This document shows, in pieces, positions 5,339-21,917 of a stretch of 22,064 bases of DNA. Source of the DNA: a virus (lineage: Duplodnaviria; Heunggongvirae; Uroviricota; Caudoviricetes); IMG/VR virus record IMGVR_UViG_3300013800_000001, positions 1 to 22,064 of that record. One strand, 5' to 3'. The notes below the pieces were generated by a model, which was given only the letters and a program-made list of their open reading frames with translations, searched no databases and was not told where the DNA came from. Numbering within the stretch: the first letter of the stretch is position 1; each line of letters begins with the position of its first letter. A program made the translations under genes and the position numbers.

Positions 5339-5369
5339 AGCTTTTAATTGGACTAAGTACTTGTTAAAT

Positions 5370-5384: not shown

Positions 5385-5395
5385 CAATTTTCGAA

Positions 5396-5572: not shown

Positions 5573-5580
5573 AGGTTTAT

Positions 5581-5772: not shown

Positions 5773-5780
5773 AAAAATTG

Positions 5781-6161: not shown

Positions 6162-6183
6162 ATGTGCTTGTATTTAATATTTT

Positions 6184-6810
6184 TTAATAACCGTATATTC
6201 CTAAGCTATTGTATGGAGCTGGAGTATTATATGTTGGTTGTTGTGGCATCTGTTGCTGTGGCTGTGGCATTGGAAATCCAGGTCCTCCTCCTCCATCAAC
6301 AACTGGAACTGAGTCTGTAGACGGTGACTTCTTGCTCTGAATACTTCTCAACATTTGCTGAATCTGATCACCTGAACCAGAGCTTAATGCTGATGTCTCC
6401 ATGTTGGCATTATCAGATGAAACTGATGGATCAATCCCATTAAGAGTATCTATTTCCTTGGCAAAGTTCTTGTATGCTGCAATAACAGCTTTAACGCCGT
6501 TTACCATCTCATTTACGCTTCTTCCTGGCTTGTTTAAAAGGTTTGACATCATTTTCTGAAGCAATTCCTTCTTCATAGCGTTACCCTTGCTATCTGAACT
6601 TGATGTAGGAGCTTCTCCCTCTGATGATTCACTATCTGGCATAGGCTCTGATCCCTCTTCATCCATAGGAGGCATTCCCCCACCCATCATAGGTGGCATA
6701 GGAGCTTCTGGTGCTGGAGGCATAGGTGGCATAGGAGGAAGACCCGCTGGTGGCATTCCTGCTCCACTCATATCTGGCATCCCTGCTGGTGGTAATTGTG
6801 ATGGGTCCAT
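6184..6810 (-). CDS. Pro/Met/Gly-rich, largely disordered protein
   Basis: 208 aa. Low-complexity PPMPP repeats flank one helical segment (KKELLQKMM...AKEIDTL). Confidence 0.7.
   Translation of the reverse strand: MDPSQLPPAGMPDMSGAGMPPAGLPPMPPMPPAPEAPMPPMMGGGMPPMDEEGSEPMPDSESSEGEAPTSSSDSKGNAMKKELLQKMMSNLLNKPGRSVNEMVNGVKAVIAAYKNFAKEIDTLNGIDPSVSSDNANMETSALSSGSGDQIQQMLRSIQSKKSPSTDSVPVVDGGGGPGFPMPQPQQQMPQQPTYNTPAPYNSLGIYGY
6273..6297. repeat. 25-bp direct repeat, copy 1 (encodes DGGGGPGF)
   Basis: gaaatccaggtcctcctcctccatc, 24/25 identical to 7170-7194. Confidence 0.85.
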
Positions 6811-6838
6811 AGAAATCTTTTAGTTACGTGTTATATAG

Positions 6839-6853
6839 AAAATAACACAGTAC
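6839..6853 (-). promoter_or_regulatory. GnACTnTGnTAnnnT motif copy (candidate late promoter)
   Basis: Minus strand GTACTGTGTTATTTT, between the portal gene and 6184..6810. Confidence 0.65.
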
Positions 6854-6855
6854 TA

Positions 6856-9036
6856 TTATTTTTGGGTTTGAGGGGAAAATGCCCTGTTAAGGATATTAGA
6901 CTGGACACTAGTGTTCTTATTCTGTGATGGAAGTCCAGTGTTTACAGCAGCCCCTGGTTGGCGATTATGTCCTGCAATATTTGGAATCATTGATCTCTGA
7001 GTTTTATCAGCTGGTGGAACTCCTTTTGGTGTTGGAGGAATACCCCCATTAGTAAGAAGATTTATAGGGCTTGCAAATTGAGAGAAGTTATTATTTCCAC
7101 CATAAGATTCACCTGTTTTTCTCAAATGGCTAACAACGCTTCTAAGATTAGATTTAGGGATAAGCCCATGAAAACCAGGTCCTCCTCCTCCATCCTGTGA
7201 TGGTGGCATTCCTGCTGGTGGCATTTGTGGCTGTGCTCCCATTGGTGGGAGTGCTGTAGGAACTGGAGCTCCTTGTTGTGGCAATGGCTGTCCATCTGGA
7301 CCTACCTGAGGAACACTTTCTTCAGGCTTTGAAATACCATCAAGTGACCATCCCCATGTCTGAATAACCTTGCTAGTAAGCTTCTGAGGGTCAATAAATG
7401 GAAGATTGATAAGCAACTGATAAATATCCATGTCCTGCTTCTTCTTAACCTCATCCTGACCAGCTATAGATGGCAAAACAGTGGCTCTATAGTCATAAAA
7501 TCCTTTAAAGTCGTCCTTTTCAATAAGTGGGAACTCTGGCTTTCCAGCTTCTCCAATGATTCTGATTGTCATGCTTTCGGTAAACAGCTGACGAGTCATA
7601 TCCATCCAGTATCTAAGAACATCAGCATATGCATCTCCGAGATGATTCACGAACATACGAACACGCTCAAGAGTAGATTCACGTAAATGACGAACTTCTG
7701 TAGCGCTTCCTGACCCTCCTCCTACTCCCATAGAGAAGTCATCTACACCAGAGGCGTACTGCATATCATTCTTCAACAATTCCTCTTCCTTATAGGCAGA
7801 AGGCTTAATATCGCTAAATTCTATCTCTCTAACACCATTCGGATCTATAGAATAAATAATACCGAAAGGACGGGTAACAAGTTCATCTTTGTTGATATTT
7901 GCCAATGGGTTTACAACCCACATTTTATGAATAGAAAGGGTGGCTGTATCAAGACGCTGGTTCTTCACCAAGTTGAGCATTACCTGCGGGCTTTCTAGAA
8001 TAAGTGGCAATCCATATCCCTCATGTTCACCTGGTATCTTTAGATAAGCAGCTTCAATAAATGGAGCCTCTTTAAAGTCCATAGGGATAGGCATATCTCC
8101 ATCCTTGAAAATAGGAACATTGCTTCCACCAACAATTACAGCATATGAGTCAGCAAACGGTCTCCACCATTCGTATACTTCGTACATTTTCAACAAATCG
8201 TCCTGAGTATTATAATATTTGTCAGTTCCATAACTTCCACCTCCAACTGAACCCATTTCTGCCATAGAAGACTTTGTGGTGTATAGGTTTGTTGTACGAA
8301 CCTGCTGACGAACAGATGCATAATCTGTTAAATCTCCTCCAGGAGAATTAAAGGCTAATTGAAGCCTTGTTTTGTCTGCCATCGGGTATCTTCGCTCTAT
8401 TTCGTCTTTTGTGAGAACTAAACGCTTAAACCAGTACTGCTTACTTCTTCTGGCTGTATTATGCCAGTCATACCATAGATTATAGTTATCTACCCACTCA
8501 CACATCGGTCCATCAAAGAATGTCTTTTTTTCCTTTTCCCATGTGTACTTCTTGCTAGAAATATCCTTCGATTTAAGGAATCTTAGCTCCCTAACATCTT
8601 TTTTCCATGAAACCTGTAAATAGCCTGTCCCATAAATAAGACAAGCTCGAACAAAATCTTCAGTAGTGGCATCCATTCCAGCTGTCTCCCAAAAGAAGTT
8701 CATCAACTCCTGCTGCTTTGCAGCTCTAACCTGGTCATCTTCGTTTCGTCCTAAAACAGTAAATTCTGGACGTGCATCAACAATACGAGGAACCATTGTC
8801 TCTACAGCAGACTGAATATATGGAATTTGTACGTTTGACTGCCATTTCTTAATCTCTCTCTGACGATCTCCTCCATAAGCAATATAGAGTTTGTAAGACC
8901 GATCAAGGCGTGGCTTGGTCACATTTAAGAAATAATTACGCGCATCATCACGTTGTAGCATGAATAAACGCTGCAATTCTATCTCTTTTTTGCCAAAATC
9001 ACTTGGCGAATAGATTGTTCCGTAAGATTTAGGCAT
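6856..9036 (-). CDS. Portal protein (podovirus P22/T7/SU10-like) with long Pro/Gln/Gly-rich C-terminal tail
   Basis: 726 aa, directly after TerL. Typical segments include VQIPYIQSAVETMVPRI, ACLIYGTGYLQVSW, NLVKNQRLDTATLS and SATEVRHL. Confidence 0.88.
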   Translation of the reverse strand: MPKSYGTIYSPSDFGKKEIELQRLFMLQRDDARNYFLNVTKPRLDRSYKLYIAYGGDRQREIKKWQSNVQIPYIQSAVETMVPRIVDARPEFTVLGRNEDDQVRAAKQQELMNFFWETAGMDATTEDFVRACLIYGTGYLQVSWKKDVRELRFLKSKDISSKKYTWEKEKKTFFDGPMCEWVDNYNLWYDWHNTARRSKQYWFKRLVLTKDEIERRYPMADKTRLQLAFNSPGGDLTDYASVRQQVRTTNLYTTKSSMAEMGSVGGGSYGTDKYYNTQDDLLKMYEVYEWWRPFADSYAVIVGGSNVPIFKDGDMPIPMDFKEAPFIEAAYLKIPGEHEGYGLPLILESPQVMLNLVKNQRLDTATLSIHKMWVVNPLANINKDELVTRPFGIIYSIDPNGVREIEFSDIKPSAYKEEELLKNDMQYASGVDDFSMGVGGGSGSATEVRHLRESTLERVRMFVNHLGDAYADVLRYWMDMTRQLFTESMTIRIIGEAGKPEFPLIEKDDFKGFYDYRATVLPSIAGQDEVKKKQDMDIYQLLINLPFIDPQKLTSKVIQTWGWSLDGISKPEESVPQVGPDGQPLPQQGAPVPTALPPMGAQPQMPPAGMPPSQDGGGGPGFHGLIPKSNLRSVVSHLRKTGESYGGNNNFSQFASPINLLTNGGIPPTPKGVPPADKTQRSMIPNIAGHNRQPGAAVNTGLPSQNKNTSVQSNILNRAFSPQTQK
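7170..7194. repeat. 25-bp direct repeat, copy 2 (in the portal tail)
   Basis: gaaaaccaggtcctcctcctccatc. Confidence 0.85.
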
Positions 9037-9049
9037 AATTTATATAAAA

Positions 9050-9064
9050 ACTATAGCAAAGTGC
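9050..9064 (-). promoter_or_regulatory. GnACTnTGnTAnnnT motif copy (candidate late promoter)
   Basis: Minus strand GCACTTTGCTATAGT, 13 nt upstream of the portal ATG. Confidence 0.65.
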
Positions 9065-9070
9065 TAATTT

Positions 9071-10528
9071 TTAATAGGATGAAGACTCTGGCATATGACT
9101 TTCATAATCAATTTGCCCTAAAGTGCCCGAATACATCACTTTGAAGCCCTGAAATCCTATAGCGGTAGCAAAAATACAGTCGTCATTAAACGAGCTTTGC
9201 GAAACCATATCGCCATGATCGTTAAAAACGAACGTAAGCATTTCATCTAGGGTTTTTTCGCTATGCAATTTTAGACTTCCATCAGATAATGCCTCTCTCA
9301 AATCATCAATCATCAATGGACGAGTGACCTTAGTTGTTTTCCACCCCAATCTATCGCTAAATTTCATAGAAATAGTATCCATTTTCACAACTGGCCTAAA
9401 ATATAGTTGAGGATACATCTTATTTTTGAGAGCAGTGACTGTAGTAAGCCCATGGTTGTTAATTTCCACAACCATAAGGGCGTTATTGTACATTCTTCCT
9501 ATTCTGTCTAGGTAATTACCGAATCTATCTGGAGCCATATAACCTCTCCAAAAACCAACCTCATGGCCATTTTTTCGGTCAAATATAGTGAATACTGAAT
9601 AGTCACCTCCAGTTACACCCTCAGCAACGTCAGCACCAATAATATAGGTTCTACCTGGTCTTGGTGGGTAATACATGACAAAGTCATCTTCATCTTTTGT
9701 AACAACACTTTTAATGCCCTCTTCATCTTCTACCTCTTGACCAACCTTATAAATGCCTTTTCTAAGCCTTTTTATAAGCTGTCCTGGGAAAACTGGACGT
9801 CCAGCTGATAGAAATTCAAGACTGTATTCCTGCGCAAAACGCATAGGATCATTGATACGTCTCCTGATTATTTCTACTTGTTCCTCAGTATAACCCCACC
9901 ACCATCCATACTTTTTCTTGCAATAATCGTTATCTGCCATCCACATACGGTGATAAAGATTACCCATAGCATTCGGTGTGCTCTCTATAATAATCTTCCC
10001 ATCCTGAGGAACAGCGTTTTCAATAGCAAGCATCTTCTCTTCTGCTTTATCCCAGAAAGCTAGCTCTGTACAGAGAACATTATGGAGGGTATATCCACGA
10101 CCTACGTTTTCACTAGAAGGGAGCACAAGGATCTTTGAATCAATGGCAGGAAAGCTGATTTCGTATTTGCTATTGTATTGAATCTTAGGGCGAATAGACT
10201 CTGGAGTTGTTCGATAAAAAGTCTTTACCTTATCAAGAAGCTCAGCTGTAAGGTCAGAGTTATACCCAATAAGGGCAGTGTTAGTACCAGGGGTGGTAAT
10301 TGTTTTATGGTAAAGATAACCAGTTACGGCTGTAGAGAACCCCATTTGGCGAGCTTTAAGAATAATGACTCGTGAATGGGTATTTAAAGCATTGAAAAGA
10401 TCTTTCTGGGCCTCATTCAAGATAAAAGGCACCAAACCTGGCGTCTTTCCCTTCAGCTTCGTGAAGCTCTCTAAATAGAACTTAGGGTCTAAAAGCTTAT
10501 CAATTGACGGTTTCTCATTAATCTCCAT
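9071..10528 (-). CDS. terL: Terminase large subunit
   Basis: Walker A LKARQMGFST, Walker B-like VLCTE, coupling motif IESTPN, and RuvC-like nuclease motifs IIGADVAEG, VEINNHG and DDCIFA. Confidence 0.95.
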   Translation of the reverse strand: MEINEKPSIDKLLDPKFYLESFTKLKGKTPGLVPFILNEAQKDLFNALNTHSRVIILKARQMGFSTAVTGYLYHKTITTPGTNTALIGYNSDLTAELLDKVKTFYRTTPESIRPKIQYNSKYEISFPAIDSKILVLPSSENVGRGYTLHNVLCTELAFWDKAEEKMLAIENAVPQDGKIIIESTPNAMGNLYHRMWMADNDYCKKKYGWWWGYTEEQVEIIRRRINDPMRFAQEYSLEFLSAGRPVFPGQLIKRLRKGIYKVGQEVEDEEGIKSVVTKDEDDFVMYYPPRPGRTYIIGADVAEGVTGGDYSVFTIFDRKNGHEVGFWRGYMAPDRFGNYLDRIGRMYNNALMVVEINNHGLTTVTALKNKMYPQLYFRPVVKMDTISMKFSDRLGWKTTKVTRPLMIDDLREALSDGSLKLHSEKTLDEMLTFVFNDHGDMVSQSSFNDDCIFATAIGFQGFKVMYSGTLGQIDYESHMPESSSY

Positions 10529-11099
10529 GTTTTTTAGGTTCTACATCATAAATACTAGATGTTATCTCATCCTCATCTTCCTGCATCAAACGAGCAGATT
10601 CTGGTATCTCTGGCTTAATCACTTCATATGTAGGAATAACGCCGTCTGAAATCTCTTTCATGTCTGACCCAAGCTCTTTTTGCTCGTTAATCTTTTCAAG
10701 GAGAACTTCTTCCCATGATCCTGAACCGCCTCCTGAATCTTCTTTGTATGTATCCATACCTACAGATTTCAAAAGCGTCTGTAATGCTTTCAACTTATCA
10801 GCATCCTTAAATCCATCCATAGCGATGTTCTTCAGACCCTTCACGATAAAATCAAAAGAAATACCTGACTTGGCTAGAGCCTCATGATATTCCTTTCTCA
10901 TCGCCATCTTATCAAGCGTCCTATATACTTCAGCTACCGTTTTAACCCCTATCATCTCCTTGAGTTTTTTAGGGTCTTGCGTAACCTGGAGTGCCTTCAA
11001 CAAAAACATCTGCTGAGCAGTATTTTGAGCACCCTTCTTTACATGATTTGTAGTATAAACTACTGGTCTAAGCCTTATTTTTGGTTTTTCCTCTTCCAT
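10518..11099 (-). CDS. Putative terminase small subunit
   Basis: 193 aa, helical, overlaps the terL start by 11 nt. Pattern: HTH-like N-terminal part, then an oligomerisation helix (DADKLKALQTLLK), then an acidic tail. Assignment is largely positional. Confidence 0.6.
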   Translation of the reverse strand: MEEEKPKIRLRPVVYTTNHVKKGAQNTAQQMFLLKALQVTQDPKKLKEMIGVKTVAEVYRTLDKMAMRKEYHEALAKSGISFDFIVKGLKNIAMDGFKDADKLKALQTLLKSVGMDTYKEDSGGGSGSWEEVLLEKINEQKELGSDMKEISDGVIPTYEVIKPEIPESARLMQEDEDEITSSIYDVEPKKHGD

Positions 11100-11761
11100 T
11101 ATAGTACATCAAAATTAAATTTATCATTCTCCCAAAACTTCTTGAGATCATTGTTTCTAATATACGGCCAATTGAAATGGCCTCCAATCAATTGGTATTT
11201 TTTTCTCCCATGTTCATCGTTATAACAAAGAGCCCAGTTTAGAGCCCAATTTATGAACTCAGCATAACTCATTCCTCTTTTTTCGGCTTCTGCTAGCATT
11301 TCAAGTCTATTGTCCATCTGATATACAAATACCAAAAAATCTAGCGTCACATGTTTATATGGAAACTTATACATTTCTGGTTTTTCAAAAGGATCCTCAA
11401 AAAGAAACTTTGGGAAGAAATCCTTTAAATAGGTAGCTATTGGTGTGAATATAAAGCTGATAGTCACCGGACGATGACTTATTCCAACCTCTATTTTAGT
11501 AAATTTACCATATGTGTTATCGGAGACAGAGTTGTTTCCTACACGTTTGGTTCTTCGAAAATTAGATACGAAGAGTTGTTGTTCAAGCCATATCTGCTTG
11601 ACTATTGTTTCAAAAATTGAGGTATGTGCTTCTCTGTAAAACTTCCTGAATCTAGCAACATACTTATCAAGAGAACTACCTTTGCATGACAGTGTCTGTT
11701 TTCTTTTTTCCCAGCCCTCTATACTACAAATGTCCTCATACGTTTTGGGGTAAAATTTCAT
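11099..11761 (-). CDS. Hypothetical protein
   Basis: 220-aa ORF rich in aromatic and basic residues. Overlaps its neighbours, suggesting translational coupling. Confidence 0.7.
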   Translation of the reverse strand: MKFYPKTYEDICSIEGWEKRKQTLSCKGSSLDKYVARFRKFYREAHTSIFETIVKQIWLEQQLFVSNFRRTKRVGNNSVSDNTYGKFTKIEVGISHRPVTISFIFTPIATYLKDFFPKFLFEDPFEKPEMYKFPYKHVTLDFLVFVYQMDNRLEMLAEAEKRGMSYAEFINWALNWALCYNDEHGRKKYQLIGGHFNWPYIRNNDLKKFWENDKFNFDVL

Positions 11762-12161
11762 TTTGATTATTATTATTCATATTACTTCCAGGAATATCCA
11801 ACATAGCATTTGGATCCTGAGGCTCTCCAAAAGAGTTCACTTCGCTATTTCCCAAAAGAACATCCATAGATTCCTCAAACATTTGTGCTAATTCAGGGTT
11901 ATTCTCCTTTAGACTAGCAATAAATTCAGCAACAGAGTTTTTATCAGAAAGGTCAACACCAGCCATCTGAAGCTTTTCAAATACCTGCTTTAACATACTC
12001 TTTCTGAACTCTTCAGTCTTGTTATCAGAAGCAAATCTAACTGCACTCAAAGGAGTCAGTTTGTCTTTAATCTTCTGAATCATACCAAGGAGTTCCTGCT
12101 TCTGTTCATCAGAAACTGGCATACCTGTTGGCTGACCTGGTTGCATCTGTTGAAAATCCAT
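11736..12161 (-). CDS. Hypothetical helical protein with Gln/Pro-rich N-terminus
   Basis: 141-aa ORF preceded by a motif copy at 12177-12191. Confidence 0.7.
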   Translation of the reverse strand: MDFQQMQPGQPTGMPVSDEQKQELLGMIQKIKDKLTPLSAVRFASDNKTEEFRKSMLKQVFEKLQMAGVDLSDKNSVAEFIASLKENNPELAQMFEESMDVLLGNSEVNSFGEPQDPNAMLDIPGSNMNNNNQNEILPQNV

Positions 12162-12176
12162 ATATTTCTTTTAATA

Positions 12177-12191
12177 ATAATATCAGAGTAC
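12177..12191 (-). promoter_or_regulatory. GnACTnTGnTAnnnT motif copy (candidate late promoter)
   Basis: Minus strand GTACTCTGATATTAT, upstream of 11736..12161 and the TerS/TerL genes. Confidence 0.65.
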
Positions 12192-12193
12192 TG

Positions 12194-15100
12194 CTATTGG
12201 GCACTACCGCCGTCTTTAAAATTCGTGTTTACTGGAGCTTGTACTGAAATTCCACTAGCCTGCAACAGTCCACGTAGAGTACGTGATGTTTTAGGTTCTT
12301 TACTTGAAATACCTAGCTGGTTTTTACCTTCTTTTGCTTCAGATAACTGTCTCCATCTATAGCTAGGAATATATTTAGCTGCCTCTTCTGGTGTGAGCAG
12401 ACCAGCGTATGATGTAATGTTTGGGACAAAAGCTTCTCCAAATGTTCTTGCACCATACCCAAGTTTTTCTAGTCCTGTGGCGTCAACAGGATACAGCGGT
12501 TGTCCAAACTGACCCTGTGGGCGAATAGCTTCTCCAAGTATAAGAGGTTGAATCAGATAGTCAAACAATACACTTCCAGCTGGATCTTTTAGTATAGGAG
12601 AACCTTGTAATGCTTGTGTAAGCTGCTCTCTTGCAGAATCACCATAGTTAGTCTGGCTAGGATTGAACATGTTCAAAGAATAGTATGGGATCATACTAGC
12701 CATGTTCAAATATATAGGATTCTTTTCGAAGAATGGTAGACGGAACATCCCAGGTTGGTTCAAGTAAGAATAAAAGTCAGTATCCAAAGCTTTTTTCTCT
12801 AGTGGAGTCTTTGTCCCTCCAAAATCCTTCATAGCAAAATTGACCTTGTTAAACGCAGCTGGGTTATAAGCTAGTGTTTGACCTGTTTTTAGGGCCATTC
12901 CATACATGAATGATACAAACGGAGATCCCATCAATGGCATATTTCGAAGAACTCTAACGGCCGCTGGCATAGCGTTATAGTTCAAATACATAGCATTTGC
13001 CAGTTCTATAGCTGACTTTGGCGATAGACGATAAAGATTCTGTCCATCTTTTGCATACTTTCCTAAAGCTAATTCTTCAGGAGTCATATTGATAAGATGA
13101 CGCATTTGTCGAAGCTGGTTTATATCATAACCATCAACAGTTGCTCTAAGAAACGTAGCCATTTTAAAGGTCTGGTCAATCTTCTCATAACCTGAAGGCA
13201 TCTTATTCAAAGTGAAATCAAGAAGCTTCCATGCAATATTTGATGGATCTGACTTAGCCTTCTCAGCTATATGGTCAAACATAGCAGCTGTGGCTCTAGA
13301 GTTGAACATTTCATTAGAAAGCATACCTGTACCAATATCTGCTCTTGATACCTCTTTCCCTGCTTTAATGATCCCTCTAACAGGCTCTGTACCGGCGTTC
13401 ATTCTTATTTCTGCCAACTCATCCATTGCTCCCCTTAGGCTATCTTTTATATCATCTACCTTTACAGCAGATGACAACATTCCATTATCTCTTCCTCTCT
13501 GTAGAAGTACCTCTGCGTAATCATTAGCGTTAAGAAAGCTCAAGTCTCCAAATGTACCTCTAGCGGCAGTCTTATTATCTAAAATACCCCTTCTAATCAG
13601 GTTCTCATCGCCAAGTGATTTACCGGCGCTCATTAGAAGACCATCCAGAAAAGCTGCTGATCCAGACTTATTACGATACATATCAAAAGATTGCTTCAAT
13701 CGAGCAATAAATTGTGGGCTAACATCCCCATTTGCCATGTGGGTCATGATCATGTTTCCTACAACAGCGTTCGTCCAAGCAGTAGGAGATGCTCCAACTT
13801 TTGCAGCACGAAATATACCCATAGCTTGGTCGTACTTGTCCATAACGTTCTTACCAATAGCTACAGCCTTATCCTTATTCTTGTTTGTTTGGATAGTATA
13901 AGACTTGATTCCTCCCATCATCTTATCGAACCATTTGACTCCAGTTTCTTCCAAAGCTCCAGAATTTACTATTTTAGCGATATCTTCCATAGTTATCTGT
14001 TCTCCACCAATTTTTTCATTGGCAATACGAAGAGCATTCTCCATTGGATCTGCAGATATGAATGTATTAGGGTTCTTTAGGATAGATGCCGTATCATCAA
14101 CGCCATTTACAATATCTGGTGCAGCTTCAGCTACCTTTGTTTCTAGTCCAGTTCCAGCCAATTTTGCTACCATTGTATCTACCTCTTTTGCTGTAGGTAA
14201 CGCTGATACTGATTCTGTATCTATGCCGAATGGTACTTTCACAGGACTGGCAGCCTTAACAGCTGAAGAAAACTCTTCTGCACCCTGTTTTAAGAATGGC
14301 TCAATAGATTCTCCCCTCAAATGAGCATTTATAGCCCCTTTCATATCAGCCCCTTGTCCGAGTGATTCCTGGACAACATCCTTAATCCTCGCCTGTCTAA
14401 CCCATTCAACAGGGTCATAGATAAAATTATCCAATATCTTAGCTCCATTGGGAGTAGATTCAGCTGCTTTTTTTATTAAATCTCCTAGTCCTAATCTATA
14501 TGATCCAGAGAATAGACTTCCACCTATACCCTTACCTTGAGAAACGATACTAGCAGCAGTAATACCACTCAGGTCTTCCCATGAATTTGTAGTCTTGATA
14601 GCGGCCTCTCCTAGCTTTTTAAATGCGTCTGATTTTCTAAAGAATGGAGTATATCTACCTGCCACAGAGGCTTTTTCTAATATACTTGACTTCCCAGCTA
14701 TTGAAAGTCCTTTTAGAGCGCCTTCACCGGTCTGGACGCCTTTATAAAGACCCATTCCAAGTCTTGGAACTAAGGCCCCTGTACCCATTGTTGCCCAGTT
14801 TACTGGGTCCATTGTTATATCCAAAGCAAAACCAAGTGGCGCTGCTACTGCCCATGGGACATTAGAGTTTTTCAATACATCTCCAAACGTATTCTTATTT
14901 CTAACCATGTTATCAGCTACATCTTGCTGAAGAGAGCCTTTCCCTTGTCCAGTAAAATGCTTTGTAGCTCCAACAACTCCATAAAGTGGCCTAGAAAGGT
15001 AATCTAATGTAGAGCGAAAAAACCCAGGTGAGTCTTCTCCAGAGTCTGCGGCGTTCTTTTGTTTTGCATCAGTTCCGTACCATTTTGTCTTTAGTCTTGA

Positions 15101-15295
15101 ATCTTCAAGGCTTTGTATCTGACTATTGATACGATTAAGAGACTCCTGATCAGAAATATCAGAAGCTGTAGGTTTTCCATTCCCACCAAGTGCTGTAGGA
15201 GATGACCTTAACTGACTGTCGAATCTTCCTGCTTCTTGTTGGAGATTTGATATTTGTCTCTCAAGATTAGGAATATCTGAAGGTTTTGTTGCCAT
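12194..15295 (-). CDS. Large putative internal virion (ejection/pilot) protein
   Basis: 1033 aa, Ala/Gly-rich and helical, with glycine-rich hydrophobic stretches (APLGFALDITMDPVNWATMGTG) typical of podovirus-like core proteins. No catalytic motif recognised. Confidence 0.5.
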   Translation of the reverse strand: MATKPSDIPNLERQISNLQQEAGRFDSQLRSSPTALGGNGKPTASDISDQESLNRINSQIQSLEDSRLKTKWYGTDAKQKNAADSGEDSPGFFRSTLDYLSRPLYGVVGATKHFTGQGKGSLQQDVADNMVRNKNTFGDVLKNSNVPWAVAAPLGFALDITMDPVNWATMGTGALVPRLGMGLYKGVQTGEGALKGLSIAGKSSILEKASVAGRYTPFFRKSDAFKKLGEAAIKTTNSWEDLSGITAASIVSQGKGIGGSLFSGSYRLGLGDLIKKAAESTPNGAKILDNFIYDPVEWVRQARIKDVVQESLGQGADMKGAINAHLRGESIEPFLKQGAEEFSSAVKAASPVKVPFGIDTESVSALPTAKEVDTMVAKLAGTGLETKVAEAAPDIVNGVDDTASILKNPNTFISADPMENALRIANEKIGGEQITMEDIAKIVNSGALEETGVKWFDKMMGGIKSYTIQTNKNKDKAVAIGKNVMDKYDQAMGIFRAAKVGASPTAWTNAVVGNMIMTHMANGDVSPQFIARLKQSFDMYRNKSGSAAFLDGLLMSAGKSLGDENLIRRGILDNKTAARGTFGDLSFLNANDYAEVLLQRGRDNGMLSSAVKVDDIKDSLRGAMDELAEIRMNAGTEPVRGIIKAGKEVSRADIGTGMLSNEMFNSRATAAMFDHIAEKAKSDPSNIAWKLLDFTLNKMPSGYEKIDQTFKMATFLRATVDGYDINQLRQMRHLINMTPEELALGKYAKDGQNLYRLSPKSAIELANAMYLNYNAMPAAVRVLRNMPLMGSPFVSFMYGMALKTGQTLAYNPAAFNKVNFAMKDFGGTKTPLEKKALDTDFYSYLNQPGMFRLPFFEKNPIYLNMASMIPYYSLNMFNPSQTNYGDSAREQLTQALQGSPILKDPAGSVLFDYLIQPLILGEAIRPQGQFGQPLYPVDATGLEKLGYGARTFGEAFVPNITSYAGLLTPEEAAKYIPSYRWRQLSEAKEGKNQLGISSKEPKTSRTLRGLLQASGISVQAPVNTNFKDGGSAQ

Positions 15296-15320
15296 GATGC
15301 AACTATACTACAATCCCACT

Positions 15321-15716
15321 TTATTCGATAACTCTTCTATTGAGTATTTTCTCTCTTGGGTCAAGTGCTCCTTCATACCCTTCCTTTTCTGCTACCTTAG
15401 CGAAATACTTCCTCCAAGCATCTTTAGGGTAAAACTTGATCATGTATTTACCAGTTATCATCTTCTGATACTGACCAGCCCATCCTATTTTGTCTTTTTG
15501 CCTTACTAGAGCTATATCTCCGAGATGAGGGAGCCTAACTACTCCATTTTCCTTCAATTCAGATGTTAATAGCTTCACAAGGCCTTCATAGAATAGTTTT
15601 ATAGTCCTTTGATCAACATAGTTGTTGTATTCAGACAAAAGACGAAAAAAACGGGCTTCGTCAAAAGCTCCGCTTTTCTTTAATGCTTTTATATCTATCT
15701 TTGGTGTGTGCGCCAT
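15321..15716 (-). CDS. HU/IHF-like DNA-binding protein
   Basis: 131 aa. ELKENGVVRLPHLGDIALV...MIKFYPKDAWRKYF matches the HU beta-sheet/arm/C-helix pattern. Lacks the usual RNP arm motif. Confidence 0.65.
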   Translation of the reverse strand: MAHTPKIDIKALKKSGAFDEARFFRLLSEYNNYVDQRTIKLFYEGLVKLLTSELKENGVVRLPHLGDIALVRQKDKIGWAGQYQKMITGKYMIKFYPKDAWRKYFAKVAEKEGYEGALDPREKILNRRVIE

Positions 15717-15719
15717 AAT

Positions 15720-16060
15720 CCTTGATATGCATAATAATGACGGTGAGACTACTTTTTACTCACGCATACGCCCCTAAACCAACTTTTATTTTTGCGGTGA
15801 TACACACCCATGTGTATTAACCGGGACTACCCCTTAGGAGAGGGACACTTGTCCAAAGTAGCGTAATCAGTCACCCGTTTGCAAGTAGGTTTCTAATCCT
15901 TTTGTAGCTACTGGCTCATTTAGTTTATTTGGAGCCTCTTGACGCTATAGTCATAGTTATTTGTACGTAATACCACCCTACTGGACCCTATTGTCTTTCA
16001 AGTGTGCCTTATCGCCTAGCAAGCGATTCCTCAGCCACGTCATTATTATAAATATCAAGG
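15720..16060 (-). ncRNA. Unassigned ~340-nt structured RNA or 5' leader closed by a 23-bp terminal stem
   Basis: 16060-16038 pairs with 15742-15720 (21/23 Watson-Crick, plus one U.G on the minus strand). Many nested helices, no long ORF, and the predicted TSS (~16063) lies just upstream of the 5' arm. Confidence 0.75.
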
Positions 16061-16069
16061 TACTTTTAG

Positions 16070-16098
16070 ATGATACACAACTGCTAACGTATTGTCAA
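16070..16098 (-). promoter_or_regulatory. Sigma70-type promoter driving the ncRNA/HU/head operon
   Basis: Minus strand TTGACA (16098-16093), 17-nt spacer, TATCAT (16075-16070). Confidence 0.75.
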
Positions 16099-16120
16099 GT
16101 CTTTTAGACTCTTGTATATT
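16092..16120 (+). promoter_or_regulatory. Sigma70-type promoter driving the plus-strand gene
   Basis: TTGTCA (16092-16097), 17-nt spacer, TATATT (16115-16120). Its -35 overlaps that of the minus-strand promoter. Confidence 0.65.
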
Positions 16121-16125
16121 AAGGG

Positions 16126-16150
16126 TAGTTTTTTAACAATAGAACCAGAC
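16126..16150. repeat. Left arm of a 25-bp inverted repeat
   Basis: tagttttttaacaatagaaccagac. 23/25 match to the reverse complement of 17010-17034, with the inner 17 bp perfect. Confidence 0.9.
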
Positions 16151-16163
16151 ATATAAACTTTGG

Positions 16164-16195
16164 GCAAGAAGTCGCATTTTGTTGCGCAAGAAGTC
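16164..16195. repeat. Two 10-bp direct repeats GCAAGAAGTC, 22 bp apart
   Basis: Copies at 16164-16173 and 16186-16195, in the leader of the plus-strand gene. Confidence 0.75.
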
Positions 16196-16211
16196 CCTAC
16201 AACACACACAT

Positions 16212-16988
16212 ATGTTAAAGAAAGATTACGAAGTTCAAGTGATTATCAATGGAAAGCCTGTTAGAGAATTTTCGCATAACGGAAAGGTATACATTGAAGG
16301 AAGAAAAAATACTCGTTTTTCTATTAGAATAAAGAATAATTCCTACACCAGGAAGTTATTTGTACCCACTATTGATGGATTATCAGTCATGAATGGAGAA
16401 GAGGGCAGTTATTCGTCTAGCGGATATATAGTTCCTGCTTATAGCTCAAGGACAATAGAAGGATGGAGAACAAGCGATAAAGAAGTAGCTGAGTTTTATT
16501 TCTCTGCACCGGAGGGTTCATACAGGAAAAGAATGAAGAAAGGAAATAACCTAGGTGCTATAGGAGTGGCAGTATTTGAAGAGAGACAAAATTACACAGT
16601 AACAACAACCATAGGACAGCCCTGGTATTCAACTGGTGCTAGCATTACACCCAATCACCATTGGTATGGCGGAAACACATTTACAAGTGGAGTAGGTGGA
16701 AGTAATTCTGTAAACTGCTCATCACTATCTCCTCAATCTGCAGACAATCAAGTACTGCTTAGATCAGCAAAAAGCGTAAAACAAGCCATCGGTACTGGAT
16801 TCGGTGAATACAAAGAAAGTTCAGTTATATCAGTCAATTTCGATAGATGTACTAACCCAGTTGCCGTGTTTGAGATACTATACAACACTAAAGAAGAACT
16901 CCAGAAAGCTGGGGTAAATATGCAAAAGGAGCCCACGTATGTGACTCCTGAAGCGTTTCCAGGTCAATACTGTAAAGCCCCTCGTTAA
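16212..16988 (+). CDS. Conserved hypothetical protein, the only plus-strand gene
   Basis: ATG at 16212 preferred over TTG at 16179. YIEG...IRIKNN...TIDGLSV...GYIV...IEGWR...AEFYF...LGAIGVAVFEE and the C-terminal IGTGFGE...FDR...PEAFP resemble a widespread uncharacterised bacterial/phage family (from memory). Confidence 0.8.
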   Translation: MLKKDYEVQVIINGKPVREFSHNGKVYIEGRKNTRFSIRIKNNSYTRKLFVPTIDGLSVMNGEEGSYSSSGYIVPAYSSRTIEGWRTSDKEVAEFYFSAPEGSYRKRMKKGNNLGAIGVAVFEERQNYTVTTTIGQPWYSTGASITPNHHWYGGNTFTSGVGGSNSVNCSSLSPQSADNQVLLRSAKSVKQAIGTGFGEYKESSVISVNFDRCTNPVAVFEILYNTKEELQKAGVNMQKEPTYVTPEAFPGQYCKAPR

Positions 16989-17009
16989 TCGAGGACCTTA
17001 AATAAACCC

Positions 17010-17034
17010 GTCTGGTTCTATTGTTAGAAAGCTA
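17010..17034. repeat. Right arm of the 25-bp inverted repeat
   Basis: gtctggttctattgttagaaagcta. The outer edge overlaps the TAG stop of the 17032..17211 ORF. Confidence 0.9.
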
Positions 17035-17211
17035 TTTTCTCTCTAAATGATCTGCAAGTTTCCTGAGAATAGCAACAAGTTCGATGCTACCGGCTACATC
17101 AGCCTTAACAATACCTATATCATTGCCATCTGTCTCAATGATAATCTGGCGCATTTTAATAGGCACTTTTTCTTGAACTTTTTTCTCTTCTACTACTGGT
17201 CCTTCTGGCAT
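17032..17211 (-). CDS. Small protein (59 aa), absent from the ORF track; last gene of the tail cluster
   Basis: MPEGPVVEEKKVQEKVPIKMRQIIIETDGNDIGIVKADVAGSIELVAILRKLADHLERK*. Starts 4 nt after the stop of 17216..17491. Confidence 0.7.
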   Translation of the reverse strand: MPEGPVVEEKKVQEKVPIKMRQIIIETDGNDIGIVKADVAGSIELVAILRKLADHLERK

Positions 17212-17215
17212 ATAT

Positions 17216-17491
17216 TTATTGTGACTTTATTAAGTTCCCTGTTTCTATATCAATAGAATAATCAAGTGGACTTACCGGTGATATTGACTCAAACTCTTTC
17301 AAGATATCTATTTTATCAAGATTATAGTCAATTGAGTCTTTCCCTTTCTGAATCCAACCGATAACGTACTTCCCTATATTTTCCTCTGGAGTACCGTCGC
17401 TTATTTTGCATTGTAGAGCAAATTCATCATGAACTCTCCCATCTACTACAGAGAATACTTTACCTGTGTCTTTTTTGTAAAATAGAATCAT
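17216..17491 (-). CDS. Hypothetical tail-associated protein
   Basis: 91 aa, coupled to the upstream gene by an ATGA overlap. Follows tail-fibre-like genes, so possibly a chaperone. Confidence 0.6.
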   Translation of the reverse strand: MILFYKKDTGKVFSVVDGRVHDEFALQCKISDGTPEENIGKYVIGWIQKGKDSIDYNLDKIDILKEFESISPVSPLDYSIDIETGNLIKSQ

Positions 17492-18144
17492 AATCGTCCT
17501 TTATCAATAAAAATATAATAAGCGTAATCAAAAGTTATATTAGCCCCTCCTGCTCCATAGTCTTCTGCTTGAAATACTATATAGGAATATGTGTCATTTG
17601 AATAGCAATTAAAGTAGAAATCAGTTCCTCCGAAGCCAAAAACGTACGTTCCAATATTGTAGAAATCACCTGGTACAAAGTATACACCAGCCTGGTCACT
17701 CCAATATGCCTGCGTCATTGGAATATATCCCAAGTTGTGGGTTATTACCACCGCTGACTGTGTTTGAAACGTAATCGTACCAGAACCTGCTGATGTTATA
17801 TCTATGGCTGATCCACCTGATGTCAAAGATAGCTGAAACGTATCTGCTGTCTTATTAATAACATAGTATATATTAAACTTCTCTAAAGGAGCTGGCATTG
17901 TAGCATCAGAATCTATAAACACCTGGTTTCCATTTAACAATCCATGGGCAACACAAGTAAAGAAGTCTGTCCCTGTATTTATTGCTGTTATCGTATTTAG
18001 ATTGATAGTTTGTGGTACAGAAATGCTTCCAGACCCAGATAAGCTCCCTTTTAATGTGGAGTACTTTGAAGTAATCACCATATCCTTATCGGCGCCTGTT
18101 TTTACATCGATTCCGTCTCTAGATAGTCTGAATCCAAGGTCCAT
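17488..18144 (-). CDS. Tail/virion protein, paralog of 18146..19150
   Basis: N-terminal unit LGFRLSRDGIDV...ITSKYSTLK, an inserted HGLxNG...YYVIN...FQLSLTSGGSAIDITSAGSGT module, then ITHNLGY. Confidence 0.6.
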   Translation of the reverse strand: MDLGFRLSRDGIDVKTGADKDMVITSKYSTLKGSLSGSGSISVPQTINLNTITAINTGTDFFTCVAHGLLNGNQVFIDSDATMPAPLEKFNIYYVINKTADTFQLSLTSGGSAIDITSAGSGTITFQTQSAVVITHNLGYIPMTQAYWSDQAGVYFVPGDFYNIGTYVFGFGGTDFYFNCYSNDTYSYIVFQAEDYGAGGANITFDYAYYIFIDKGRL

Positions 18145-18145
18145 A

Positions 18146-19150
18146 TTAAATGCTTTTATTCTTGAATATTACGTAGTATATAGCGTCATTATAGCCACCA
18201 AAGCTTAATGTAGATGTATTAATAGTTGTGACATCATTAGCCAATCTTAGGTAACTTTTACCGTTTGGTCTCCCGTAAGACAAAAAAGATGGCAAATATC
18301 CCAAATCATGACTAGTTGACGACCCAGCAAATCCTTTTTTATGAATAATACTAGAGAAGAAAGAGCTAGAAAGTATCAGGTCTATATCTTCGCATGTTTT
18401 CACATCAAATCCAGGTTTGCTTATCTTTAATCCATAATCATTGGATGATGAACCGACACTTGTTCCTGTAGATATGGTACTCGCACTATAGGAATCGAAT
18501 GTATCTAAAAACTGATAGCACGTGAAATAAACGGTAGTAGAAGCGACTTGGTTATCAAACAACGAACGAACATATATCTCGGTCGTATTGTCATATATCC
18601 TAATATCTAGCTGTCCGAACTGTTCAGCCATAAAATTACTTGTTCCTCCACTTGATTCAACGCCATTGTAATTAAAAATCCATGGCGATTTATACCCAAG
18701 ATTGTGAGTTATGACAATTTTGTTTGTTTCCGAGTTCCATTCATGTGTACCACTACCGGCACTCGTTATATCTACGGCTGATCCTCCCGATGTAAGTGAA
18801 ACTTGGAAGGTATTAGTTGTGGCATTTATTACGTAATACACTAATCCTACTCTTTCAAAAACAAAAGCATCAACCTCCTCAATATACAGTGATAAACCCC
18901 CTGGTAACGTGCCGTCAGTGCTAAAATAAACTACTTCTCCGTTGTTTAACCCATGCCCAGCTGATGTTAGAGTATCAGTCCCAGCATCTGCTGTTACAGT
19001 GGCAAAATTGTCTCTTGGTGTATCACAAGAAACGCTATAAGTGGCTAGAACCTTCAAATTAAGGAAAGATGAACTAAAGACTAGAAATCTGTCCGCACAA
19101 TCCCTTACATCATAGCCTTTTTGAGAGACTTTTGCTCCGTAACTGCCCAT
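18146..19150 (-). CDS. Tail/virion protein with duplicated YGxKxSxxGxDV unit
   Basis: Units YGAKVSQKGYDV...FSS and YGLKISKPGFDV...LSS, each followed later by H(N/D)LGY. Same inserted HGLNNG module as 17488..18144. Confidence 0.6.
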   Translation of the reverse strand: MGSYGAKVSQKGYDVRDCADRFLVFSSSFLNLKVLATYSVSCDTPRDNFATVTADAGTDTLTSAGHGLNNGEVVYFSTDGTLPGGLSLYIEEVDAFVFERVGLVYYVINATTNTFQVSLTSGGSAVDITSAGSGTHEWNSETNKIVITHNLGYKSPWIFNYNGVESSGGTSNFMAEQFGQLDIRIYDNTTEIYVRSLFDNQVASTTVYFTCYQFLDTFDSYSASTISTGTSVGSSSNDYGLKISKPGFDVKTCEDIDLILSSSFFSSIIHKKGFAGSSTSHDLGYLPSFLSYGRPNGKSYLRLANDVTTINTSTLSFGGYNDAIYYVIFKNKSI

Positions 19151-19157
19151 ATCATAT

Positions 19158-20006
19158 TTAAAAACCGTTTAATAGATATCCAAGTAAAAATCTATCATTT
19201 GCTGTATCCGCAAGAAGTATTCTTGAGTTCTCCGAATCTATTGTTATCTTACCTGTTGGATCTTGAAATGTAGTAGATGTAATTGTCCACCCAGCTATTG
19301 ACCCAGATGAGGCTACAATTTCTCCTGATTCTGAAATTCTGAATGGGGCTGTAGATCTATCAGCAAAACTGCTTCCAGCCCAAAATCGAATATCATCTCC
19401 TGATGTCACCACTGAAGATAGACCGAAACTATCATCTGTATCTCTAATATAATCCGTTCCAAGTGTAAATCCGCCTACCGTACCGGACTCGGCGACTATT
19501 ACACCTGATTCTAATACTCTAAAAGGTGCTGTATATCTATCTTCAAATGTACTTCCAGCCCAAAAACGGACATCATCACCAGTTGTTACCGTAGAAGAGA
19601 GCCCGAAACTGTTAGCTTCATCTCTAACATAGTCAGATCCTATTTCAAAGCCTCCTATAGACCCCGTTAGGGCCTCAATATTGCCACTTACAAAGACGTT
19701 TGTGAACTCAGCATACCCAGTACCCCCATCTATGTAAAAACCGACGCTTTTCGGCTTCCAATTGATTGATTTTATGAAGCTTTTTATCCAAATATCTCCT
19801 AATCCTCCATCGTCTTTTACTGGCATCTGTTGAACGTTCCCATTTTCTCCAGAATAGCCAAAACCACCGTCATACTGTGATGTATAATTGGTGGAATTTG
19901 GCTCTCCTACAGCTTTTGGAGTAGTTTGACTTGATGATTCAGGAACTCTCTGTAAAAGACTGTTGTAGGGCTGATTAATTTTCTCGTAATTGTCTGTATC
20001 ACTCAT
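19158..20006 (-). CDS. Tail fibre/spike-like protein with two tandem 60-aa repeats
   Basis: G(S/T)(I/V)GGF...RFWAGS...TAPFR repeats at aa 115-174 and 175-234, followed by a partial third (GSIAGW). Confidence 0.65.
   Translation of the reverse strand: MSDTDNYEKINQPYNSLLQRVPESSSQTTPKAVGEPNSTNYTSQYDGGFGYSGENGNVQQMPVKDDGGLGDIWIKSFIKSINWKPKSVGFYIDGGTGYAEFTNVFVSGNIEALTGSIGGFEIGSDYVRDEANSFGLSSTVTTGDDVRFWAGSTFEDRYTAPFRVLESGVIVAESGTVGGFTLGTDYIRDTDDSFGLSSVVTSGDDIRFWAGSSFADRSTAPFRISESGEIVASSGSIAGWTITSTTFQDPTGKITIDSENSRILLADTANDRFLLGYLLNGF
19305..19664 (-). repeat. Tandem 180-bp intragenic repeat (2 units)
   Basis: cttccagcccaaaa recurs exactly 180 bp apart (about 19372 and 19552), matching the 60-aa protein repeat. 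Confidence 0.85.
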
Positions 20007-20013
20007 ATTTCAG

Positions 20014-20028
20014 AGCATAACACAGTCC
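20014..20028 (-). promoter_or_regulatory. GnACTnTGnTAnnnT motif copy (candidate late promoter)
   Basis: Minus strand GGACTGTGTTATGCT, only 7 nt upstream of the ATG at 20006. Confidence 0.65.
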
Positions 20029-20038
20029 TCTCTAGACT

Positions 20039-21214
20039 TTAACTGCCCTTTACGTTGATAATTTGACGCAAAATATGCTTTACTCTCACTAATTCTTTGC
20101 TATTTTCCATTACATTATCAATGTCTTTGTATGCTGACGGCAATTCATCAATATAATCCTCGGATCGTCTTACAACAATACCCGCTAACTCTCTATCAAA
20201 GTCATCCATTGTGAATCTACGACGTGCCTCACTACGTGAGAATCGTCTTCCAGCTCCGTGTGGGGCTGAATGATAGCTCATTTTATTGGCTAATCCCTCT
20301 ACAATGTAGCTTTTTGTGCCCATTGATCCTGGTATTACCCCTAGTTGCCCGTCGTTCATCTGGATAGCACCCTTTCTTGTTATCCACATATTCTTTCCGA
20401 AGTGGTTCTCCATCTGAGTAAAGTTGTGATGACAGTTTATTCTATCAATTTCAATATCTTTTGCTCTACCACCCTCATCGAAGAAGGCGTAAGACATTTC
20501 TTCAAGCACACGATCCATCATTTCTTCTCGGTTTAGACGTGCATAATCCTGAGACCATAGTAGGTCATAGATATAGTCATCAAAACCTTCAATACCAGTC
20601 GGTAGATAGGATAGATCTTTATCTGGTAGCTTGATGTGCATGGTATCCATTAGCTTCATAGCCACTTTTATATGACGATCTGCTAAACGATTTCCCACTC
20701 CTCTTGAACCAGAGTGTAGTACTACCCATACCCTATCCTCTTCATCCAAACAAACCTCAATAAAGTGATTCCCAGAACCAAGAGTCCCCAATTGGTTTTT
20801 CCAATCCTTACAGGCATCATCATAGTAATCCTTCTTTTTAGCATCTAGAGCTTTAACCCTTGCTAGGGCTGTTCCTTGTATTTTATTATTTTTAGCTCCT
20901 GCATTTAAAGGGATTCTACGCTCTATTCCTGCTCGAATAGATTCTAGATCTTCTGGCAAGTCCTTAAAAAAGAACTTTGTCTTAACGGCAATCATTCCAC
21001 ATCCGATATCAACACCAACTGCTGCTGGTATAATAGCGTTTTCAGTAGCGATAACTGAACCAACACAGGCACCCTTTCCAAGGTGGGCATCAGGCATAAC
21101 AGCTACGCCATGAACAAACGGCAATCCTGCCGCATTTTTTACTTGATCGAAAGCACCGCTTTCTAACTCTTCCTTAGGTAGGAAAAGTCTTAATTTTTCG
21201 TTTATTACTTCCAT
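20039..21214 (-). CDS. rtcB: RtcB 3'-phosphate/5'-OH RNA ligase
   Basis: All catalytic motifs present: MPDAH, VGVDIGCG, GTLGSGNHFIE, LHSGSRG, HHN, IPGSMG, HGAGR (guanylylated His) and ELPSAYK. Confidence 0.97.
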   Translation of the reverse strand: MEVINEKLRLFLPKEELESGAFDQVKNAAGLPFVHGVAVMPDAHLGKGACVGSVIATENAIIPAAVGVDIGCGMIAVKTKFFFKDLPEDLESIRAGIERRIPLNAGAKNNKIQGTALARVKALDAKKKDYYDDACKDWKNQLGTLGSGNHFIEVCLDEEDRVWVVLHSGSRGVGNRLADRHIKVAMKLMDTMHIKLPDKDLSYLPTGIEGFDDYIYDLLWSQDYARLNREEMMDRVLEEMSYAFFDEGGRAKDIEIDRINCHHNFTQMENHFGKNMWITRKGAIQMNDGQLGVIPGSMGTKSYIVEGLANKMSYHSAPHGAGRRFSRSEARRRFTMDDFDRELAGIVVRRSEDYIDELPSAYKDIDNVMENSKELVRVKHILRQIINVKGS

Positions 21215-21227
21215 ATAGTTTTTTAAT

Positions 21228-21917
21228 TTAATTTCGTCCCCTTGTTTCAGGGTATAAGTCTAATACAACGTCAGATTGAAAGACTTCTTTGGTATCTACA
21301 TCCATAAGAGATAGTTTTCCTTCCCATCCACCACCAGTGTCCATAAACCAGACATTACCGTACTTTATGGGCTTATGAGAAAACTTATATATGCTCGTAT
21401 GCCCAACATAAACCTCATTGAAGGCTGGATACGATATTCCGTTTTCATCATACATCCACTTTTTGTCCCACAATTGCCTATCCCACATCAAAACCTGATT
21501 ATTCTGTTCTTCAATAGGTAAGTTTGGATCAAACCCTCCATGGACATACAGATTGTTATTCTCATCAACAAAGTAGAATTTTGTACTTTTCAAAAACTCT
21601 CTATGCTTTTGCATTAACTCTGGATGTCGCTCAACATAGCCATTGTAGCTAGCTTGACCTCCCTGCAATAGCCAAACATCTGGCTGTTTTCCTTTTGTAA
21701 GCCAATCTTTTAACCATTGGTCATGATTCCCACGAACAAATACGAGATTTTTTATCTTCATTATCTCCTCAATCAGCTCTGGCACCTCTGGCCATCCATC
21801 TGCGACATCTCCTAGACAGATAAGTCTGTCATTTTCATAATCAAATTTAGATCGTTCCATTACCTGAAGAAATGATCTGTATCCGCCATGGCTATCTCCA
21901 AGTACTAGTGTTCTCAT
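21228..21917 (-). CDS. Calcineurin-like metallophosphoesterase (lambda phosphatase-like)
   Basis: GDSHG, GDVADG, RGNHD, VHGG, GHT and DTGG motifs occur in the canonical order. Confidence 0.92.
   Translation of the reverse strand: MRTLVLGDSHGGYRSFLQVMERSKFDYENDRLICLGDVADGWPEVPELIEEIMKIKNLVFVRGNHDQWLKDWLTKGKQPDVWLLQGGQASYNGYVERHPELMQKHREFLKSTKFYFVDENNNLYVHGGFDPNLPIEEQNNQVLMWDRQLWDKKWMYDENGISYPAFNEVYVGHTSIYKFSHKPIKYGNVWFMDTGGGWEGKLSLMDVDTKEVFQSDVVLDLYPETRGRN

Follow-up and report, generated by a model that had tools for sequence, protein, structure and literature searches.

Adjacent RNA units of an uncultured 99-kb phage, one of them a complete messenger RNA, with ends paired in conserved duplexes of 23-25 bp that may act as processing stalks

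The DNA analysed here (22,064 nucleotides, hereafter the window) corresponds to the initial 22 kb of a virus record of 99,376 bp that has direct terminal repeats (IMG/VR record IMGVR_UViG_3300013800_000001) and represents an uncultured phage of ~99 kb. Positions 15720 to 17034 hold two neighbouring units, namely a structured RNA of ~340 nt on the minus strand and, on the plus strand, the gene of a 258-aa beta-sandwich protein, each of them enclosed by a long inverted repeat. Pairing is present in both stems, covariation shows it to be conserved, and it acts at the level of RNA, on these strands. We favour, with moderate confidence, the reading that the locus consists of two independent RNA units whose ends are paired in duplexes of ~23-25 bp, most likely acting as processing stalks.

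Inverted repeats were searched in the whole 99-kb genome using the following criteria: at least 18 nt, at least 85% complementarity, and both arms within 3 kb. Only five were found, two of which are the adjacent pairs considered here, i.e. the left pair (15720-15742 with 16038-16060, 23 nt, 91% complementary) and the right pair (16126-16150 with 17010-17034, 25 nt, 92% complementary), whose sequences have no relation to each other. As two of the five repeats of the genome are adjacent, and ten shuffles gave 0 to 4 repeats under the same criteria, chance alone is insufficient to account for the two pairs. The original prediction, made from the letters of the window, had described both pairs, unrelated in sequence, as closing the ends of two divergently transcribed RNAs, and had named, as a check, a search of related genomes for end pairing kept despite differing arm sequences. 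The repeat finder recovered the same arms at the same positions, and the conserved pairing and the strand bias of G·U pairs (see below) agree with two end-paired RNAs on the proposed strands and with pairing that outlives changes of arm sequence. The only other long-range inverted repeat that is not built of promoter copies is located outside the window, at genome positions 29997-30016 and 31055-31074 (20 nt, 85%), and spans ~1.1 kb around a non-coding island.

The right stem is the terminal duplex of the messenger RNA (mRNA) of the 258-aa protein, whose gene is encoded on the plus strand at 16212..16988. Its 5' arm (16126..16150) was defined by the repeat finder and by comparison with relatives, and its 3' arm (17010..17034) begins 21 nt beyond the stop codon (16986-16988). 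Both mismatches of the stem are G·U pairs in the sense RNA, the pairing is ungapped and includes no bulge-helix-bulge motif, and the stem is found in both the minimum-energy and the centroid folds of the 923-nt RNA. The first nine relatives fetched all carried an inverted repeat of 23-31 nt, even with different neighbouring genes, with the 5' arm ~50-80 nt upstream of the ATG and the 3' arm 10-20 nt past the stop codon. Eighty further metagenomic loci were added after these nine, and the stem was considered as present at a score of at least 14, which was reached in 40 of the 71 testable loci (1 of 71 for mirrored controls). Relatives with less than ~40% protein identity lack the stem. Removal of duplicates left 37 distinct arm pairs, with stems of 20-31 bp (median 25 bp); in most of these loci 35-62 nt lie between the 5' arm and the ATG (98-100 nt in two loci), and the 3' arm follows the stop codon mostly by 12-36 nt.

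The 37 arm pairs comprise 839 Watson-Crick pairs, 55 G·U pairs in the sense strand, 13 A·C mismatches and 27 other mismatches; counted per locus, G·U pairs outnumber A·C in 22 loci and the reverse is seen in 1 (p = 6e-6). A DNA repeat has no reason to favour the transitions that leave G·U on the coding strand, and the pairing is therefore selected in the mRNA. The two halves of the stem are not equivalent, since the inner half is richer in G+C (0.38, versus 0.25 in the outer half) and contains a single non-wobble mismatch, versus 26 in the outer half. In one relative (L008), a 136-aa open reading frame (ORF) is inserted in the leader, and the arms still pair across 1.26 kb.

The left stem is the closing helix (P1) of the structured RNA (15720..16060, minus strand), for which a consensus fold with 13 helices was built from seven homologues (the window, L004, L005, L006, L009, L012/L077 and L073). 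This consensus contains 84 pairs, with 92% of cells paired versus ~40% when the partners are slid, and changes on both sides at 55 of the 84 pairs versus 11-16 in the slid controls; none of 500 shuffles reached any of the observed measures. P1 itself has compensatory changes at 15 of its 23 pairs, and is 23-28 bp long among the homologues. The numerous G·U pairs of the fold would be C·A on the plus strand, which assigns the structured RNA to the minus strand. The 5' strand of P1 (16038..16060, minus) is located 3 nt from the predicted transcription start. Its 3' strand (15720..15742, minus) contains the AAGGA upstream of the HU/IHF-like gene (15321..15716, minus; Pfam Bac_DNA_binding, 26.3 bits), which lies downstream of the structured RNA, and ends 3 nt before the ATG of this gene. 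In the window, L004, L006 and L012, the start codon of the HU-like gene is adjacent to the P1 3' strand or overlapped by it; in L009, the structured RNA is located among transfer-messenger RNA (tmRNA) and transfer RNA (tRNA) genes instead.

Contigs from two RNA libraries of different studies are identical to the interior of the structured RNA (15749-16006 and 15773-15918), with its flanks uncovered; these are assembled contigs of depth 2-5, which cannot show ends and come from libraries that can contain DNA, and they give a weak hint of a stable structured RNA. A search of 84 loci with the covariance model R1 and sequence searches of the fetched loci gave no further copies beyond L073 and L077, and a motif scan of IMG/VR gave 60 hits, all of which except the known contig were attributed to chance using nhmmer. 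For the HU-like protein, no relatives were found in IMG/VR. As the mRNA stem is present in at least 37 distinct loci versus 7 for the structured RNA, the latter is far rarer and the two modules are separable.

Inside the HU-like gene (codons 13-27; 15641-15662, minus strand), a terminator-like hairpin followed by seven U was observed, which is kept in the window, L004, L005, L006, L010 and L012, and is still preserved in the window with GAFDEA in place of GILNED. This hairpin may be an attenuator that ends the transcript of the structured RNA.

The genomic context of the end-paired gene indicates what its duplex delimits. In seven loci the mRNA unit is embedded in an array of co-oriented tRNA or tmRNA genes, and most of these loci have arms at 5-21 nt from a tRNA end: in L113, the 5' arm follows tRNA-Asp by 21 nt and tRNA-Glu begins 78 nt beyond the 3' arm; the 3' arm is followed by the start of tRNA-Ile 10 nt on in L084, and by that of tRNA-Met 6 nt on in L095; 7-14 nt separate the end of tRNA-Met from the 5' arm in L103, L104 and L117; and in L076, 9 nt lie between the end of the tmRNA and the 5' arm. 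In many relatives, what precedes the 5' arm is a tRNA or a tmRNA and not a promoter. The position of the unit inside such arrays implies that the stem marks the ends of a unit within a precursor rather than a transcription start, and what is conserved is therefore the position of the mature ends in or beside the duplex, however these ends are made. A tmRNA gene occupies the slot beside the end-paired gene in L009 (2467-2777), L075 (137-446) and L076 (1376-1740), and the same slot holds tRNA-Asp in L008 and the 340-nt RNA in the clade of the window.

RNA-repair genes are also found in the vicinity, with RtcB at 3 kb from the end-paired gene in the window, PNKP within 3 kb of it in six relatives, and Rnl1 in three. 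PNKP or T4-type RNA ligase 1 genes were observed directly beside the gene in L004 (4897-5772), L007 (1957-2910 and 3900-4775) and L010 (3892-4767), and the RtcB of the window is the counterpart of these genes. The beta-sandwich protein may be part of a tRNA or RNA-repair island.

RNase III requires roughly two helical turns of duplex; stem lengths of 20-31 bp fit this, and each of the two stems is as long as the shortest RNase III substrates. The fates which the original prediction had offered for the paired RNAs included protection and RNase III processing, and RNase III-type processing or protection stands as the most plausible role, the cleavage itself being a step that we infer. Unit 1 would be the ~340-nt minus-strand structured RNA, transcribed from a sigma-70-type promoter and situated in the leader of the HU-like gene, and unit 2 the complete plus-strand mRNA of the 258-aa protein, transcribed from a phage-specific promoter of late type. 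A host endonuclease specific for double strands (RNase III type) would cut the weaker outer half of each duplex, and would in this way release each RNA from a longer precursor, often polycistronic and containing tRNAs. The short inner duplex, richer in G+C, would remain and would keep exonucleases and 5'-end-dependent decay away from either end. The left cut would also detach the structured RNA from the HU-like mRNA and free the start region sequestered by the stem. Cleavage, stabilisation and translational activation are the putative steps of this scheme.

The closest parallel is provided by the RNase III stalks of ribosomal RNA (rRNA) operons, in which flanking sequences likewise pair in a duplex of at least about two turns, around a unit located in a polycistronic precursor with tRNAs. 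The present units have a duplex of at least ~20 bp formed by the flanks (23 and 25 bp in the window; over the 37 distinct loci, the median is 25 bp), and their pairing is at the RNA level (G·U 55 versus A·C 13; 15 of 23 P1 pairs compensatory). They differ from rRNA stalks in that the duplex of one unit encloses a complete mRNA of ~0.9 kb that codes for a protein, and in that cleavage is here a putative step. In the early mRNAs of phage T7, RNase III sites are local hairpins between genes, whereas the pairing described here spans a whole gene.

Several points weigh against processing by cleavage. Cleavage sites, transcription starts and RNA ends are predicted ones; the phage has no RNase III gene, and its host may or may not have one; the RNA data, being contigs of depth 2-5 that may include DNA, cannot show ends; and no other gene of the phage has such a stem, which argues that this is not a general processing system. 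Moreover, a perfect duplex of 25 bp might protect the ends just as well without any cut.

This last proposal is a close rival, which we consider as possible rather than probable. The duplex would cap ends that are made by transcription initiation in the window and by RNase P or RNase Z at the neighbouring tRNAs in the relatives, blocking exonucleases and 5'-end sensing, and RNase III would have no part. It is consistent with the location of the arms, a few nucleotides from the predicted start here and 5-21 nt from tRNA ends in the relatives, and it has a precedent in the hbs mRNA of Bacillus subtilis, where a 14-bp interaction of the 5' with the 3' untranslated region (UTR) modulates the access of RNases, namely cleavage by RNase Y (PMC5737220). 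On the other hand, in L010, L009 and L113 the nearest predicted end is 17-77 nt away from the arms, so that single-stranded tails would be left, and a weak outer half combined with a strong inner half fits trimming better than capping.

The promoters bear on a third reading, in which a single -35 box (TTGTCAA, found at 16092-16098 as the original prediction had located it) serves two divergent promoters, so that polymerase binding is mutually exclusive and the locus behaves as a bistable switch. A consensus promoter scan gave 11 of 12 matches for TTGACA-17-TATCAT on the minus strand (16098..16070) and 10 of 12 for TTGTCA-17-TATATT on the plus strand (16092..16120), and starts were predicted at ~16063 and ~16127 from the consensus and the usual 7-nt spacing. 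The original prediction had placed the starts at these two positions: the left one abuts the 23-nt arm (16038-16060, 3 nt away) and the right one falls at the 25-nt arm, the -10 element ending 6-9 nt before the arm in the subclade of the window (17 nt in L010). These spacers, together with those of the three closest relatives (L005, L006 and L012), which also have 17 nt on the plus strand, are what suggests a shared -35.

We regard this reading as unlikely. Among the ten relatives with TTGTCAAG, its distance to the plus-strand -10 is 11, 17 (in four), 19, 20, 20, 21 and 21 nt, whereas the minus-strand -10 keeps a distance of 16-17 nt; the element that is fixed relative to the plus-strand -10 is GnACT, not TTGTCA. 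With TTGTCA spacings of 11-21 nt, a shared -35 is limited to the window and its three closest relatives. In addition, 27 of the 37 loci with the mRNA unit lack TTGTCAAG, and the structured RNA is absent from most loci that have the mRNA stem.

The plus-strand promoter matches a class that is independent of a -35. This promoter (AGACTCTTGTATATT, 16106..16120, plus strand), which includes the -10 TATATT, is a two-mismatch copy of the phage motif GnACTnTGnTAnnnT, of which the genome contains 11 strict copies (0.8 expected), all on the minus strand and ahead of virion genes. Perfect copies of GnACTnTGnTAnnnT are found at the same place in L004 and L010, and one-mismatch copies in L008, L009, L012 and L073, all of them 6-17 nt before the 5' arm. 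Judged from these copies, GnACTnTGnTAnnnT would define a promoter class of the phage itself, -35-independent and of late type. The minus-strand promoter is by contrast of sigma-70 type (TTGACA-17-TATCAT, 16070..16098, minus strand), and would serve the structured RNA and the HU-like gene; CTTGACAA, with a spacer of 16-17 nt to TAnnnT, is kept in all relatives with this layout. Its site at 16098 has the cTTGACAA box in common with a family of eight near-identical promoters of the genome (cTTGACAAATGGAAAATCATCrTGTACACT), the eight copies of which indicate that the host polymerase reads promoters of the TTGACA type. These copies are located, mostly outside the window, at positions 22183, 27382, 45345, 45761, 45808, 51551, 58120 and 64784, and their spacer is as strongly conserved as their hexamers.

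Given the variable plus-strand spacing, the GnACTnTGnTAnnnT class of the plus-strand promoter and the separability of the modules, the mutually exclusive switch is not upheld, and the symmetry which the original prediction saw in the module amounts to a local coincidence of two independent elements. As promoters of different classes stand back to back, any switch, and promoter control in general, is more likely to be temporal than steric.

Circularisation is an improbable fate for these RNAs. The stems would hold the ends for joining, after a cut, by phage ligases (RtcB here, Rnl1 with PNKP in relatives), and would yield a circular mRNA and a circular structured RNA, both resistant to host exonucleases. 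The RNA-repair genes mentioned above (RtcB at 3 kb, PNKP in six relatives and Rnl1 in three) speak for it, but the tRNA-rich neighbourhood explains their presence just as well. We know of no nuclease acting on such duplexes that leaves RtcB-compatible ends, and the ungapped pairing offers no bulge-helix-bulge. No back-joined form, RNA end or inverted form was found in the RNA contigs, a weak argument as such contigs are unreliable for all three.

A role of the repeats as DNA, either as invertons or as terminal inverted repeats of a small mobile cassette such as an IS element or a MITE, is very improbable: inverted repeats of 23-25 bp do flank segments of 341 bp and 909 bp, and the gene with its arms is found in different genomic contexts, but the strand-specific excess of G·U over A·C (55 versus 13) is unexpected for DNA sites, in all 8 relatives that have the HU-like neighbour the orientation towards this gene is unchanged, a single orientation is seen in the DNA contigs, the phage genome has no serine or tyrosine recombinase (no resolvase or integrase), although a recombinase could be supplied by the host, the element is present in single copy, its product is a beta-sandwich protein and not a transposase, and target-site duplications or flanking direct repeats are not visible.

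Closure of an mRNA by its extremities is a feature of hok, a type I toxin-antitoxin mRNA whose 3' end pairs with the extreme 5' end and closes the molecule. The end-paired mRNA resembles hok in this respect and differs from it in encoding a 258-aa protein instead of a small toxin. A fold-back of hok type was rejected after comparing the 5' arm with the start region using RNAduplex and shuffled-arm controls (mean z -0.08 over 32 loci, 1 of the 32 below z -2). In the icaR mRNA of Staphylococcus aureus, pairing of the 5' UTR with the 3' UTR creates an RNase III substrate, covers the Shine-Dalgarno sequence and blocks initiation (PMC3868564). The icaR and hbs mRNAs, which show that such pairing can work either with cleavage or as protection, share with the present one the pairing of two UTRs of a single bacterial mRNA; here, however, the duplex forms the extreme ends of the unit, covariation has conserved it in dozens of phages, and it measures 25 bp, compared with 14 bp in hbs. 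Repression of icaR type was rejected, as 35-62 nt (98-100 nt in two loci) separate the end of the 5' arm from the ATG downstream, and the start region is unpaired in the folds.

To our knowledge, bacterial and phage mRNAs have rarely been shown to be closed by pairing of their extremities, and icaR, hbs and hok are single genes in single species. The new element here is a stem of ~25 bp around a whole mRNA, kept by compensating mutations in dozens of uncultured phages of ~100 kb. The frequent location of the unit between tRNA genes suggests that the mRNA is released from a tRNA precursor or stabilised, in a manner that would combine an rRNA-like stalk with a tRNA punctuation like that seen in organelle transcripts. 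The locus is a clean natural system in which the control of RNA fate by end pairing can be studied, and it also offers a new conserved leader hairpin and a possible long-stem relative of the orphan manA RNA.

The leader hairpin is located in the 5' UTR of the beta-sandwich gene (16162..16197, plus strand), and ~35 relatives have the same architecture, with covariation in both stems. In the window it consists of a basal GGG/CCC stem, a symmetric purine-rich internal loop with AAGAAGU on both sides, and a covarying apical stem; in the window and the relatives alike, it is found 10-20 nt before the ATG with a basal stem of 3-4 bp and (C)AnGAAGU on both strands of the internal loop, where tandem G·A pairs like those of loop E would form. 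An A-rich stretch follows the hairpin, with no Shine-Dalgarno sequence. The hairpin was recognised in single-sequence folds, as MAFFT and RNAalifold could not align it, and it has no match in Rfam. It is probably the binding site of a protein dimer. The 136-aa ORF inserted in L008 (2534-3000) sits in the apical loop of this hairpin; it displays a Cys/His pattern that is HNH-like by eye only, and has no Pfam hit.

The 258-aa protein itself has a weak match to Pfam PF25534 (DUF7918; 24.9 bits, under the cut-off of 27) and none in PHROGs. It has 115 homologues, many of them on contigs of ~100 kb. Its structure model has a predicted local distance difference test score (pLDDT) of 80, and matches only generic folds of the immunoglobulin (Ig)/MSP-like type and uncharacterised AFDB clusters; fold searches thus gave a generic beta-sandwich and no function.

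Comparison of the structured RNA with Rfam provided a lead to manA, an orphan riboswitch candidate described in cyanophage leaders (PMC2864571; Weinberg et al. 2010). One of the seven homologues, the copy of L009, matches the manA model (RF01745) over its whole length with 32.2 bits, compared with a gathering score of 55.2 (E ~1e-6 in a search of 401 nt, 1e-4 in 40 kb), and the model has no match to the copy of the window nor anywhere in its genome. In the reverse direction, R1 was aligned to the right place of a genuine manA RNA (Prochlorococcus phage P-SSM2) with a score at noise level. Both RNAs are phage-borne structured RNAs of 5' leaders in which four parts correspond, namely the closing helix, two hairpins (UGnCUGAAUAA...UAAGG and AA-GACU...GUC), and a 3' hairpin whose GUAAnAnAG-type loop is followed by CC, and all of these shared parts are visible in the manA RNA of P-SSM2. 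The structured RNA differs by ~150 extra nucleotides in its middle, so that the 5' and 3' modules align and the central junction does not, and by its P1 of 23-28 bp versus 5-6 bp in manA. On these sequence likenesses, it may be a distant, enlarged relative of manA.

For the window as a whole, blastn searches against INPHARED phages gave no match, Rfam searches at gathering and permissive thresholds gave nothing relevant, and no tRNA or tmRNA genes were found. The phage sequence is present in runs from wastewater, activated sludge and soil. The end-paired gene is the only one of the window on the plus strand, all genes of 250-15716 and 17032-21917 being on the minus strand. Among the minus-strand products are an SU10-type capsid protein, the portal and the terminase, tail-fibre-like proteins, the HU/IHF-like protein, RtcB, a metallophosphatase, and a 1033-aa protein with no assigned function. 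Just right of the 3' arm, a 59-aa ORF of the minus strand is covered by a 157-nt contig from one RNA library (sludge, oligo-dT), which corresponds to positions 17021-17165 of the window.

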